Below are positions 17,206 through 59,508 of a stretch of DNA of 64,000 bases, in pieces. The notes under the pieces were generated by a model. That model did not search any database. It worked only from the letters and a program-made list of their open reading frames with translations, and was not told where the DNA came from. Source of the DNA: Methanocaldococcus sp. 16A (lineage in GTDB: Archaea > AGJL01 > Methanococci > Methanococcales > Methanocaldococcaceae); NCBI GenBank assembly GCA_049860595.1, contig CP187551.1; one strand, written 5' to 3'. Every line of letters starts with the position of its first letter. The stretch's first letter is position 1. The translations under genes and the position numbers were made by a program.

Positions 17206-17916
17206 GAGACTGTCAAGATAAAGATTAAATAAATATGTGTAAATAAAGGAAGATATGAAACTTACGATAGAAATGTTAAAGGAAGGGATTAAGAAGATAG
17301 TTAAAAGGAATAAGAAGTCGATAGAGATTAAAATTTTAGCTGGAATTTTGTATTATTTAGGATTATCGTTAAGAAAGGTTAGTTTGTTTCTTTCTCAATT
17401 TGAAAGTATAAGTCATGAATCGGTTAGAACATATTATCACAAGATTAAGGAGATTTTAAACGAGCCTGAAAGAAAGACAAGAAACCTAATAGCAATCGAT
17501 GAAACTAAACTAAAGATTGGAAATGAAACTATTTATGTATGGTCTGCTATCGATGTGGGTTCTAAAGAATGTTTAGGTATCTATGTCTCTAAAACAAGAT
17601 GCTACCTCGATACAATCTTATTCGTAAAAAATATATTAAAATTTTGCTCGAATAAACCAAAGATTTTAGTCGATGGTGGCAAATGGTATCCGTGGGCACT
17701 GCAAAGATTAGGACTAAAATTCGAAAGAGTTCGATTCGGTTTAAGAAATTGTGTCGAAAGTTTCTTTTCCCTACTCAAACGAAGAACTAAATCTTTCTAT
17801 AATCGATTCCCAAGTAATACTAAATTCTCAACCGTCATTAGCTGGCTCGTATCTTTCTCCTCTTTCTATAACTTCTTTCTCTCCTTATCTTGACATCGTC
17901 TTATCTTGACATCGTC
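17206..17916 (+). mobile_element. IS6-family insertion sequence
   Basis: Left IR GAGACTGTCAAGATAA (17206-17221) matches the reverse complement of TTATCTTGACATCGTC (17885-17900, repeated 17901-17916) at 13/16; encloses a DDE transposase; no clear target duplication. Confidence 0.85.
17255..17893 (+). CDS. IS6-family DDE transposase
   Basis: HTH (GLSLRKVS...SHESVRTY); [23 protein letters not shown]. Confidence 0.92.
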
Positions 17917-18797: not shown

Positions 18798-20096
18798 TTA
18801 AATATATAGGAAGAAATATAAAGTTATTAAAGTTGCAGAGATTATTGACAAAATTACTCCAATTTTCATCATCTCTTCTTTTTTGACACCTTCACCATAT
18901 ACAATAGCATTAGGTGGGGTTCCTACTGGCAGAATAAATGAACACGATGCCGATATACCGATAGCTAATATTAAAATCTCTTTTGGAATTCCTAAAGACG
19001 CTCCAAATAGTATTGGAACTAATATTCCAGTCAGTCCAGTGTTGCTTATAAAATTGGTTAGAATTATTGTTATTATAATGACAGCAAATAAAACTACAAT
19101 TGGGCTTAAATTACCTAATATAGCTATAAGTTTTTCAGATAAGAATGTGTTGGCTCCACTTTCAACAATAATCCCTCCTAAGCATAAAGCTCCACCAAAT
19201 AAAATTAAAGTACCCCAATCTATTTTCTTGAAATCATTAACTTCAACTAAATTAAATACAAACAACAAAATTATAGCAAATATAGAGATTATTGAATCAA
19301 AATATTTGATATTAAAAATTTCACTTAAATAATCACTAATTATCCAAAGAAAAGCTATCAATAAAAATATTCCTAACAATGTATAAGCTTTTACATTTAA
19401 CTCCGTTCTTGCTTGAATAGCAATGTTTTCTTTTGGAATCCATTTTTTAAAGTAAATATATAGTGTTAAGGTAGAGATTAAAAATAACAATAAGCTTATT
19501 GGAAATCCAACTTTAAACCAGCTAAAAAATCCATAATTTAAATAACTACTTGCTATGGCATTTGGTGGAGAGCCAATAATTGTTGCTATTCCTCCTACAG
19601 AAGCAGAGTAAGCAACCCCCAACAATAAAAAATCCCTCAACTTATCAGTTTTATTATAAACTAAGCCAAGAGCTATTGGCAATAAAATTAATGTTGCAGA
19701 TGTGTTGCTAATCCACATCGACAAAAAATATGCGGATAAAAACATTAAAAAGCTGGTAGTTTTAAAATCCTTTCCATAATTTAGTAGCTTATAGGCAATA
19801 AATTTATCTAAATTATGATTTTTTAATGCCTGTGCAAGCATAAACCCTCCTAAGAATAGGAATATTATTGGATGAGCAAAGTATGTCAAAGCCTCTTTTA
19901 AATTAAAAATTCCTAAAAACACTGCCATTATTGGAATTACTAAGGATGTAACTGGAAGAGGTAGTAATTCAAAAAACCATAGGCATCCAGCAACTACTAA
20001 TATAATAATACCTTTATAAATATCTGGTAATGTTGCTCCAAAAATAAGAGAGATTATAATTATCCCCAATCCTATAAATTCTTTTGACAATTTCAT
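18798..20096 (-). CDS. SLC13/DASS-family di/tricarboxylate or sulfate symporter
   Basis: SMWISNTSA, GGIATIIGSPPNA, TNFISNT, LPVGTPPNA. Confidence 0.92.
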   Translation of the reverse strand: MKLSKEFIGLGIIIISLIFGATLPDIYKGIIILVVAGCLWFFELLPLPVTSLVIPIMAVFLGIFNLKEALTYFAHPIIFLFLGGFMLAQALKNHNLDKFIAYKLLNYGKDFKTTSFLMFLSAYFLSMWISNTSATLILLPIALGLVYNKTDKLRDFLLLGVAYSASVGGIATIIGSPPNAIASSYLNYGFFSWFKVGFPISLLLFLISTLTLYIYFKKWIPKENIAIQARTELNVKAYTLLGIFLLIAFLWIISDYLSEIFNIKYFDSIISIFAIILLFVFNLVEVNDFKKIDWGTLILFGGALCLGGIIVESGANTFLSEKLIAILGNLSPIVVLFAVIIITIILTNFISNTGLTGILVPILFGASLGIPKEILILAIGISASCSFILPVGTPPNAIVYGEGVKKEEMMKIGVILSIISATLITLYFFLYI

Positions 20097-20166
20097 TATC
20101 CCTCCCCCACCTAATTTAAATTTTTAATAAAAGTTTAACTTGTTCATGTCCTATAATAGTTAAGTT

Positions 20167-20174
20167 TTTATATA
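20167..20174 (+). promoter_or_regulatory. Putative TATA box (TTTATATA) predicting a start near 20198-20201
   Basis: Consensus methanococcal box A; the tRNA promoters here have an ATGC initiator about 31 nt after the first T. Confidence 0.5.
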
Positions 20175-20197
20175 TCTTGTGTGTTTATTCATTATTC

Positions 20198-20229
20198 ATA
20201 GACTCGCATGGCTGACCCGTGTCTCTTTT
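20198..20229 (+). ncRNA. Candidate ~30-nt small RNA antisense to two 16S rRNA sites
   Basis: 20201-20213 is the exact reverse complement of 54327-54339; 20214-20225 is the exact reverse complement of 54592-54603; TATA upstream, T-run downstream. Confidence 0.55.
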
Positions 20230-20367
20230 ATAAAACAAAATTTAAAGTAAAAATTATAAAATTATAAATGGTATTTGGGATAAATTCTCCAAAGAATTTA
20301 TAGGTTTAGAAATAATAAGAAATCTAATTGAAAAATATTAAAAACAAAATTATTACCGGGTGTTAAT

Positions 20368-20757
20368 ATGAGTGTATGGCAGGGAAGAAGTAGAAGAAAA
20401 CCAACAGGAGGATTATATAGACCAGCAAGAAAAAAGAGAAAATTTGAAATGGGTAGAGAACCAATTGAAACACACGTAGCAGAAGATGTTATCAAAGTAA
20501 AGAAGGTTAGAACAAGAGGAGGAAACTTAAAGGTTAAAGTTGTTAGAACAGGCTTTGCTAATGTATTAGACCCAGAAACAAATACCTGTAAAAAAGTTAA
20601 AATAATAAGAGTTAGAGAAAACACTGCAAACATCCACTACGTTAGAAGAAACGTTATAACAAAAGGAGCAATTATTGAAACAGAGATTGGTTTGGCAAAA
20701 GTTACATCAAGACCAGGGCAAGATGGAACTGTCAATGCAATATTAATTAAAGAGTAA
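20368..20757 (+). CDS. rps8e: 30S ribosomal protein S8e
   Basis: [28 protein letters not shown]. Confidence 0.98.
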
Positions 20758-53513: not shown

Positions 53514-53590
53514 GCCGCGGTAGTTCAGCCTGGGAGAACGCTGGACTGAAGATCCAGTTGTCGGGTGTTCAAATCACCCCCGCGGCACCA
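53514..53590 (+). tRNA. tRNA-Phe(GAA)
   Basis: CTGGA-CTGAAGA-TCCAG anticodon arm; CCA encoded. Confidence 0.97.
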
Positions 53591-53598
53591 TTTTATGT

Positions 53599-53674
53599 GC
53601 CCCCATAGCTCAGATGGTAGAGCGACGGACTGTTAATCCGTAGGTCGCAGGTTCGAGTCCTGCTGGGGGCGCCA
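53599..53674 (+). tRNA. tRNA-Asn(GTT)
   Basis: ACGGA-CTGTTAA-TCCGT; CCA encoded. Confidence 0.97.
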
Positions 53675-53703
53675 TTAATTTTTTATTTTTTTATGCCCGA
53701 TAT

Positions 53704-53781
53704 GGGCCCGTAGCTCAGCCTGGTCAGAGCGCTCGGCTCATAACCGAGTGGTCAAGGGTTCAAATCCCTTCGGGCCCACCA
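53704..53781 (+). tRNA. tRNA with CAT anticodon, probably tRNA-Ile2 (agmatidine-modified) rather than Met
   Basis: CTCGG-CTCATAA-CCGAG; GGGCCC acceptor stem typical of archaeal Ile tRNAs; no initiator features. Confidence 0.85.
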
Positions 53782-53796
53782 TATAACTAATAATTA

Positions 53797-53871
53797 GCTC
53801 CGGTGGTGTAGTCCGGCCAATCATGCGGGCCTTTCGAGCCCGCGACCCGGGTTCAAATCCCGGCCGGAGCA
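53797..53871 (+). tRNA. tRNA-Glu(TTC), CCA not encoded
   Basis: CGGGC-CTTTCGA-GCCCG. Confidence 0.96.
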
Positions 53872-53910
53872 TCATTTGCTCTATTTTGGGGTTAATTAAG
53901 TTTTATACGT

Positions 53911-53998
53911 GCAGGGGTCGCCAAGCCTGGCCAAAGGCGCTGGGCCTAGGACCCAGTCCCGTAGGGGTTCCAGGGTTCAAATCCCTGCCCCTGCACCA
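53911..53998 (+). tRNA. tRNA-Leu(TAG)
   Basis: CTGGG-CCTAGGA-CCCAG; long variable arm; CCA encoded. Confidence 0.95.
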
Positions 53999-54008
53999 TA
54001 GGTAAAGT

Positions 54009-54081
54009 GGCCGGGGTGGGGTAGTGGCCATCCTGGGGGACTGTGGATCCCCTGACCCGGGTTCAATTCCCGGTCCCGGCC
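54009..54081 (+). tRNA. tRNA-His(GTG), with genome-encoded G-1 and C73
   Basis: GGGGA-CTGTGGA-TCCCC; followed by a T-rich terminator. Confidence 0.95.
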
Positions 54082-54280: not shown

Positions 54281-55761
<1,481 letters not shown>

Positions 55762-59065: not shown

Positions 59066-59183
59066 TGGTACGGCGGTCATAGCGGGGGGCCACACCCGAA
59101 CCCATCCCGAACTCGGAAGTTAAGCCCCCCAGCGATGCCCCGAGTACTGCCATCTGGCGGGAAAGGGGCGACGCCGCCGGCCA
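59066..59183 (+). rRNA. rrf: 5S rRNA
   Basis: CGGCGGTCATAGC...CCCATCCCGAACTCGGAAGTTAAG...GCCGCCG; T-run after. Confidence 0.96.
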
Positions 59184-59242
59184 CTTTTTATTATTTTAGA
59201 AGACAATATTTATACATTCAAATTTTAAGTTAAGAAAGTTAA

Positions 59243-59508
59243 GTGGGTAAGGGGGCTGGTGACTTTCCCCTCTTTAAGAGGGGAGGAAGTTCCGCCCACC
59301 CCATTTATGGGCAGCGTCCCCTGAGAAGGGGCGGGAGATGCAGCAGAAACGACACGGCTCCGGAAGAGATGACGATGATAGTAAAAGTTGAGGACTTCCG
59401 GAGAACCGGTGAAACGGGCATCTCCCCTGCCCGGGGTGCAAGCCGGTTTCGGCGCTTAGCCGAATGTCACCGAAATTACAGAAGGCGGGCTATAGCCCCC
59501 ATACCCAC
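59243..59508 (+). ncRNA. rnpB: RNase P RNA (type M)
   Basis: P1 GTGGGTA.GGGGGCT/AGCCCCC.TACCCAC; P4 GAGGAAGTTCCGCC and ACAGAAGGCGGGCTA; TATA TTTATACA at 59209-59216. Confidence 0.95.

Follow-up and report, generated by a model that had tools for sequence, protein, structure and literature searches.

A conserved element at the promoter of the ribosomal protein gene rps8e in Methanococcales, antisense to 16S rRNA

In a 64,000-nucleotide (nt) stretch of Methanocaldococcus sp. 16A, contig CP187551.1 (the whole stretch is called the window here, all coordinates are positions in it unless a contig is named, and its genome is G000), a G+C-rich island upstream of rps8e, which encodes ribosomal protein eS8, shows exact antisense complementarity to two separate sites in 16S ribosomal RNA (rRNA). 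Comparison across the order Methanococcales makes it very probable that this element is a selected, promoter-proximal and transcribed part of the rps8e unit. The best explanation that we can offer for it, tentatively and with confidence a little short of even, is that the island would form the first 25 to 30 nt of the transcript made from the rps8e promoter and would act by pairing in trans with 16S rRNA.

The element consists of two abutting segments on the + strand. Segment 1, GACTCGCATGGCT (20201 to 20213), is the exact antisense of 16S nt 47 to 59, and segment 2, GACCCGTGTCTC (20214 to 20225), is the exact antisense of 16S nt 312 to 323. The window holds each of them one further time, read on the minus strand at 54327 to 54339 and at 54592 to 54603, respectively, within the 16S gene (54281 to 55761, from an Rfam match), and neither arose in 100 dinucleotide shuffles. 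Segment 1 contains the core CTCGCATGGC (20203 to 20212, + strand), which is invariant order-wide. Upstream stands a conserved promoter motif of archaeal type, GTTAAGTTTTTATA (20159 to 20174, + strand), with the TATA box TTTATATA inside it at 20167 to 20174; its spacing predicts transcription to start within 20196 to 20200 on the same strand, at about A20198. A run of four T residues (20226 to 20229, + strand), a candidate archaeal oligo-T terminator or attenuator, follows segment 2, and a T4 to T6 run is conserved in relatives. The rest of the putative rps8e leader (20230 to 20367, + strand) is AT-rich and poorly conserved and holds a Shine-Dalgarno-like GGGTG (20358 to 20362, + strand); rps8e itself (20368 to 20757, + strand) encodes 129 amino acids with a match to Pfam Ribosomal_S8e (E value of 1.8e-43). 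A CTGA at the junction of the segments (20212 to 20215) and a second TATA-like box, TTTATAGG (20297 to 20304), were read from the sequence. These readings bear out the preliminary description of the locus, which had reported the island halves as exact antisense copies of two 16S sites and had placed the TATA box, T-run, CTGA and second box at the same positions.

The match by itself is a weaker argument than it first appears. When exact rRNA matches of at least 12 nt (16S and 23S, either orientation) were counted over 147,563 noncoding bases of the own genome, which has a G+C content of 30%, there were 17 with the real rRNA versus 21 with reversed rRNA. Lone 12- and 13-mers shared with rRNA are at chance level genome-wide, as the preliminary description had allowed for its 13-mer. 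It had relied instead on the abutting second match, and here the outcome was mixed: abutting 10+10 pairs are frequent, 41 real versus 28 in the control, yet the 13+12 pair of this element is the best real pair, and the best control pair is 11+12. We estimate that about 0.006 such 13+12 pairs are expected per genome, which is rare, yet not decisive given the many windows scanned. In the own genome the 9-mer core was found only at this locus and, as antisense, in both 16S genes, and a search there for degenerate cores (at most two mismatches) behind TATA-like boxes gave 12 hits, of which the element itself was the only element-like one. The observation is more than chance because of conservation across genomes, which decides the matter where the pair statistics do not.

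We located rps8e in 38 of 40 Methanococcales genomes and then read the upstream regions from that protein anchor; the G013 locus ends 10 nt upstream, which left 37 assessable genomes. The core CTCGCATGG(C), or a form with one nucleotide deleted in G014, stands upstream of rps8e in 15 of the 37 and in four of the five genera, namely, 9 of 16 genomes of the own genus, 2 of 2 in genus g5, 1 of 1 in g4, 3 of 11 in g3, and 0 of 7 in g2. In every one of the 15 core-bearing genomes, the distance from the first base of the motif GTTAA(G/T)TTTTTATA (at most one mismatch) to the core is 37 to 44 nt, and a T4 to T6 run begins 7 to 20 nt past the core. The multi-genome alignment showed conservation of the promoter block and the core alone, other leader sequence being unalignable between genera. 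Past the T-run the leader is wholly divergent in G012 and G002, with the element kept, and the distance from core to rps8e ranges from 103 to 297 nt. Between the four genera, the eS8 proteins are only 64 to 70% identical, yet the core stays the same. In metagenomes, the promoter-plus-core pattern was found in 19 stretches; 11 of these continue into an rps8e-like start, 1 more is element-like, and 7 are unrelated. The upstream alignment across relatives that had been proposed at the outset shows the element to be real and conserved, and not an assembly artefact, in 15 assemblies and 11 metagenome contigs.

The exact core was found at 0 of the 68 rps8e loci from other archaeal lineages that were read over 900 nt upstream (80 loci in all), and one-mismatch 9-mers on the + strand at 4 of those 68 stand in unrelated GC-rich contexts. 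A search for the whole 25-mer at up to three mismatches in the 40 genomes of the order returned the own genome only, a result that misled because relatives carry 1-nt indels at the junction.

These data bear on the possibility that the island is a neutral relic or an accident, that is, a decaying scrap of inverted rDNA, a chance double match or an assembly chimera. Lone 12- and 13-mers are at chance level, as described above, and very many windows were scanned, both of which speak for it. Conservation already contradicts it, the core being constant in otherwise unalignable AT-rich DNA of 15 independent assemblies and 11 metagenome contigs, and the order of the halves (antisense of site 1, then of site 2) would not be reachable by simple deletion in an inverted 16S copy. 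We regard this explanation as highly improbable.

Some leaders carry other sequence blocks. In G030 and G024 (loci L024 and L025), a GC-rich, structured-looking block that includes CCATGAGGCCGAAA ... GTCGGCTGAACGG stands in the element's place, about 60 to 230 nt upstream of rps8e, with no Rfam match at the gathering threshold. The G014 leader (L003) has an extra block of about 95 nt between element and rps8e, some 60 to 155 nt before the ATG, that is edged by inverted repeats (TATAGGCCTTTCGCAG ... CTGCGAAAGGCCTATA); it is missing from G005 and from the window. It looks like a small insertion resembling a miniature inverted-repeat transposable element, and the leader would seem to tolerate insertions downstream of the T-run. 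The distribution of an Hfq-family gene was also recorded. Every one of the 17 own-genus genomes has it, the own genome included (G000:C1:1416050-1416193, - strand), as do both g5 genomes. Hfq and the element are not strictly associated: Hfq was found in 0 of 21 genomes of g2, g3 and g4, though g3 and g4 genomes carry the element.

Around the invariant core, the element takes several lineage-specific forms. A subclade of seven genomes within the own genus (G000, G001, G002, G005, G007, G012 and G014) has GACTCGCATGG, a variable junction, GACCCGTGTCTC and TTTT. In all seven, the second 12-mer is invariant and the junction shows 1-nt indels and substitutions: CT, CCT and CTT are found, CTG occurs in four metagenome contigs, and the G014 core additionally lacks one G. 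Three of the junction variants, with an added C, T or G, each extend one of the two complementarities. GGCTT lengthens the match to site 1, CTGGACCC gives a 15-nt match to site 2, and the G005-type GGCCTG-ACCC matches site 2 at 17 of 18 positions with one gap; the match to site 2 reaches 15 nt (CTGGACCCGTGTCTC) in metagenome contigs L167, L169, L171 and L177. G012 has a 13-nt match through a different extension. The form in G008 and G016 is GGACTCGCATGGCTTAGACCC(C) followed by T5-6, a contiguous 16S antisense match of 16 nt, and the ACCC(C) past it corresponds, across a gap of 4 nt, to the 16S antisense block that comes next. In g5 the form is G(A/G)CTCGCATGGC, an AT-rich spacer and T6, and in g3 and g4 it is ATGCTCGCATGG(C/T)CTCTCG(C/A) and then T4-5. 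The bipartite, two-site architecture proposed in the preliminary description thus holds in part, with the core order-wide and the second half confined to the seven-genome subclade. A 9-nt antisense match of the core to the 5' region of 23S rRNA in four g3/g4 genomes was rejected as a second target; it is probably a lineage-specific helix variant and is read as coincidence. At nt ~50 to 60, the 23S sequence reads CCCATGCGAGG in L049 to L052 (G037, G032, G036 and G026) and CCCGGGGGAGG or similar in other genomes.

The conserved core could alternatively be a protein-binding operator or leader site, contacted on DNA or nascent RNA by a transcription factor, by eS8 or by an assembly protein, with the 16S match a leftover or coincidence. 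From the start of the TATA box to the core, the spacing is 36 nt in the own genus and 29 to 30 nt in the other family, which would place the transcription start some 3 to 6 nt before the core in the former and 1 nt before it in the latter. Archaeal repressors usually act at the start-site region, which the core overlaps. Just 9 to 10 nt are conserved order-wide, and an antisense match of a 10-mer somewhere in about 4.6 kb of rRNA has a chance probability of about 0.004, small and yet not negligible. Feedback through ribosomal protein leaders is moreover known, as for Methanococcus L1. However, the element is antisense to rRNA and holds no sense mimic, so that it cannot copy a protein site of the rRNA; the core is nonpalindromic in the own genus; and coincidence would leave unexplained why lineages extend the element along the 16S antisense (16 nt plus ACCCC in G016, and a second 12- to 15-mer in the subclade). 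On balance an operator seems unlikely to us.

Pairing with 16S rRNA, the explanation that we prefer, can be considered against the structure of the two sites, which was taken from the Rfam SSU_rRNA_archaea consensus; helices are named by standard 16S numbering. Site 1 (54327 to 54339, + strand) comprises the 5' strand of helix 5 (nt 48 to 50 and 52 to 54), the junction between helices 5 and 6 (J5/6; G55 and A56) and the first three pairs of helix 6 (nt 57 to 59). The helix 5 strand at nt 48 to 50 and 52 to 54 is closed by nt 342 to 347. Site 2 (54592 to 54603, + strand) lies in helix 13, a hairpin of nt 304 to 325 with a 10-nt loop (nt 310 to 319) and a 3' strand at nt 320 to 325. It covers 8 of the 10 loop nucleotides (312 to 319) and 4 nt of the 3' strand (320 to 323), so that it is mostly an open hairpin loop. 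Helix 13 is followed directly by helix 14 and this by the helix 5 3' strand, which puts both targets around a single 5'-domain junction. The two targets had been assigned to the 5' domain of the small-subunit rRNA beforehand, and both were found to flank the same junction of that domain, where eS8 binds. In one study the J5/6 right-angle motif is described as metastable, conserved universally and, in Escherichia coli, essential to assembly of the 30S subunit; bS20 lies on one side of it and contacts it (PMC6007441). A second paper assigns to eS6 and eS8 a binding region like that of bS20 and locates eS8 in the 5' apical subdomain (PMC12825303).

Across Methanococcales, 29 of 30 16S sequences carry target 1 (ACTAAGCCATGCGAGTC) unchanged; the exception, L048, has one substitution, and rps8e was not found in that genome. 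Site 2 is not the same in the two families, and the element has its second half only where site 2 matches.

Whether the element belongs to the rps8e transcript or forms a gene of its own can be judged from relatives that lack it. Six genomes (G006, G010, G011, G009, G029 and G033) keep the promoter motif before rps8e without the element, and in the first three the flanks align as what looks like a clean deletion of element plus T-run. Because these six element-less genomes retain the motif, the promoter serves rps8e. The TATA-like box at 20297 to 20304, which would supply a downstream promoter, is absent in G005, G001 and G007. The element is therefore best read as the putative 5' end of the rps8e transcript, perhaps terminated early at the U-tract. 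The conserved T-run allows an early stop and release of an RNA of about 30 nt, so that the leader and small-RNA readings may both hold. The preliminary description correctly put the element at the predicted transcript start, between a TATA promoter and a T-run that both proved to be conserved. Its proposal of a separate tiny gene, with rps8e on its own TATA box, is probably wrong in view of the retained promoters and the missing boxes, and the alternative that it mentioned, an rps8e 5' leader that meets pre-16S rRNA, fits better.

A stand-alone gene would make a trans-acting guide or splint of about 30 nt for 16S rRNA, with rps8e transcribed from a downstream promoter. The unit of promoter, core and T-run is compact and conserved, as the sequence from T-run to rps8e is not, and the variable distance between core and rps8e (103 to 297 nt) would suit such a gene. 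So would the second box TTTATAGG in the window and a second promoter-like sequence, AAGTTAAAGTTTATATAT, located in G039 some 55 nt ahead of rps8e; a separate unit is conceivable in that lineage. Against these stand the six genomes with promoter and without element, the apparent clean deletions among them, and the boxes missing from G005, G001 and G007. A scan for a TATA box, GC island and T-run also gave three noncoding candidates, with an rRNA antisense match of at least 12 nt only here. We consider a stand-alone gene decidedly unlikely; it overlaps the preferred explanation if termination is partial. Another of the scan candidates, near G000:C1 position 1448112 (+ strand), has a TATA box, AATGATGA, AAGTTACCCCCA, CCGA and TTTT; it resembles a box C/D small RNA (sRNA) and has a 10-nt antisense match to 23S rRNA near nt 2012.

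The two segments also have some capacity to pair with each other. A terminator scan found a 6-pair hairpin, GCAUGG/CCGUGU with two G-U pairs, at 20206 to 20222 and followed by CTCTTTTATA (1 versus a shuffle mean of 0.2). This raises the possibility of a cis-acting attenuator like a bacterial intrinsic terminator, in which the halves are stem arms before the U-tract and the junction is the loop, and indeed every junction variant lies in the predicted loop. The predicted energy, however, is only -6.5 kcal/mol at 37°C versus a shuffled mean of -4.1 (standard deviation of 2.0), about 1.2 standard deviations apart, and 0.0 kcal/mol at 85°C, and these organisms are hyperthermophiles. The deletion in G014 removes the hairpin from the predicted fold, and none is predicted in G016, G039, G038, G036 or G037, though core and T-run are kept there. 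Of the 12 bases that never vary in the second half, the hairpin would account for only 6, and archaeal termination needs no hairpin. An attenuator of this kind is very unlikely. A search for a conserved pairing partner within the leader or coding sequence found none; the best partners differ in place across 12 species. A mini-ORF (open reading frame) starting at the AUG in the core was likewise rejected, its frames not being conserved by eye: the frame after ATG is a 19-amino-acid ORF in the window, ATG-GCN-stop in G005, G012 and G008/G016, and an unrelated peptide elsewhere.

Returning to trans pairing with 16S rRNA, the comparisons outline a strong BRE/TATA promoter (BRE, transcription factor B recognition element), a predicted start near 20198, a GC-rich segment whose core CUCGCAUGG(C) is invariant over four Methanococcales genera, a variable stretch, a U-tract, about 140 nt of unconserved leader and then rps8e. 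RNA polymerase would either stop at the U-tract and release an RNA of about 30 nt or read through into the rps8e messenger RNA (mRNA). The exposed 5' segment could then pair in trans with new, unfolded 16S rRNA at the helix 5 strand, J5/6 and the base of helix 6, and in the Methanocaldococcus jannaschii-like subclade additionally with the loop and 3' strand of helix 13. Both targets lie around one multihelix junction in the 5' domain, which is also where eS8 binds, and pairing would report, or act on, 16S rRNA that is yet unassembled. Its effect might be on the balance of termination and read-through, on the stability or location of rps8e mRNA, or on the junction, which could be held open temporarily. 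That the element works through such pairing, coupling eS8 output or junction folding to unassembled rRNA, is a proposal that we hold with slightly less than even confidence. Its more specific version is rather doubtful: there the rps8e 5' end or the ~30-nt RNA would pair directly with new 16S rRNA, at the metastable junction of helices 5 and 6 and at the helix 13 loop, either to sense unassembled 16S and so set eS8 synthesis or as a protein-free, small nucleolar RNA (snoRNA)-like folding timer.

A number of observations weigh against this proposal. The element is missing from 22 of the 37 assessable genomes, which we read as loss, so that it is dispensable. Outside the subclade, complementarity to 16S rRNA extends over only 10 to 12 nt. 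Lone rRNA matches of 12 and 13 nt are, as noted, at chance level genome-wide. In mature 16S rRNA, site 1 and part of site 2 are base-paired, and pairing therefore requires nascent or unfolded rRNA. Site 1 is near-invariant and the other family is without the second half, which leaves no room for covariation. Predicted duplexes are weak at 65 to 85°C; those with site 1 have -5.7 to -7.6 kcal/mol at 85°C in G039, G038 and G026. Duplex energies with 16S rRNA exceed those of shuffled elements only modestly; the window duplex has -9.3 kcal/mol versus a shuffled mean of -7.8 (standard deviation of 1.3), and the difference is clearest in G016, about 4 standard deviations from the shuffled mean. Comparison with shuffles is a poor discriminator here, because a long, GC-rich 16S rRNA offers good partners to shuffled sequences too. 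A T4 run is a weak archaeal terminator. Finally, the sole RNA run found, a small metatranscriptome (X1; 0.05 of sampled words), covers a relative's rps8e coding sequence and not the element: its reads span only 20317 to 20749, with many differences, and are silent on expression of the element.

Among known systems, the element invites comparison with archaeal box C/D sRNA guides, which it resembles in its short (10- to 13-nt) exact rRNA antisense blocks and in forming a small GC-rich island in an AT-rich genome. Unlike in those guides, the antisense blocks abut and do not each stand before a D or D' box. No box C (RUGAUGA) or C' box was found within 60 nt on either strand. The only CUGA is that at the junction, where it ends segment 1 in the window only, and a U-tract, not a box D, lies behind segment 2. 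The suggestion that the CTGA is box D-like finds no support in relatives: it is not conserved, reading TTGA in G012 and being absent in G008/G016 and the other family. The judgment that this is no canonical C/D sRNA was sound, and no Rfam family matches: Rfam 15 gave no match at the gathering threshold near 20.2 kb, none at E values up to 10 in 20050 to 20450, and none at the loci of six relatives.

Eukaryotic chaperone snoRNAs such as U3, U14 and snR30 pair with several sites in pre-18S rRNA. Like them, the bipartite element would make its antisense contacts in the 5' part of the rRNA of the small subunit, in competition with native helices. Unlike them, it would be about 30 nt long, has no snoRNA-protein boxes or hairpins, stands at the 5' end of a ribosomal protein transcript, and is restricted to one archaeal order and bipartite in one subclade only. 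Ribosomal protein feedback leaders, for example, that of Methanococcus L1, share with it a conserved leader element related to an rRNA region in the protein's neighborhood. In known leaders of this type, the protein is bound by a sense-strand mimic of the rRNA site, whereas the element, on the + strand together with its promoter and rps8e, is antisense and would bind the rRNA itself.

In Methanolobus, rps8e is one of the genes whose long 5' untranslated region (UTR) undergoes processing upstream of the ribosome-binding site; what the study describes is cleavage with a uridine signature and not an rRNA-antisense element (PMC5499594). A long rps8e leader is likewise predicted here. The T4 to T6 run also recalls oligo-T attenuation and sRNAs derived from 5' UTRs, in that it could yield a short terminated RNA together with a read-through mRNA. 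The element differs in that no sensor structure or ligand is evident and in that the proposed effector is rRNA pairing. Our literature search found no description of the element and no precedent for rRNA pairing as an attenuation effector. The element is akin to ribosomal protein leaders, antisense guides and chaperone snoRNAs and fits none of them.

The divergent neighbor of the element (18798 to 20096, - strand) is a gene for a permease of the CitMHS/Na-sulfate-symporter type, and besides rps8e the other neighbor is a radical-SAM (S-adenosylmethionine) gene. Two genes upstream of the permease gene, an ORF of 212 amino acids (17255 to 17893, + strand) resembles, by eye, a small transposase or insertion sequence protein. 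In the rRNA operon, seven transfer RNA genes stand directly upstream of the 16S gene (53514 to 54081), and a gene for archaeal RNase P RNA (59247 to 59504) lies past the 5S gene at the operon's end (region 59069 to 59504).

Few cases are known in which archaea adjust ribosomal protein output to the supply of rRNA, and these follow the bacterial scheme, with the protein binding to an rRNA mimic within its own mRNA. A leader that is antisense to a universally conserved 16S assembly junction, and that precedes the gene for a protein of the same domain, suggests that an mRNA or a short RNA cut from it may read rRNA directly. If true, this would be the first case of ribosomal protein control in which rRNA feeds back on an mRNA by base pairing, and a minimal prokaryotic counterpart of the chaperone snoRNAs. 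The element is short, genome-unique and naturally missing from close relatives, and strains of the M. jannaschii type carry it. Even if the rRNA link is wrong, rps8e, a core ribosomal gene, is preceded in Methanococcales by a conserved cis element that has not been described before.
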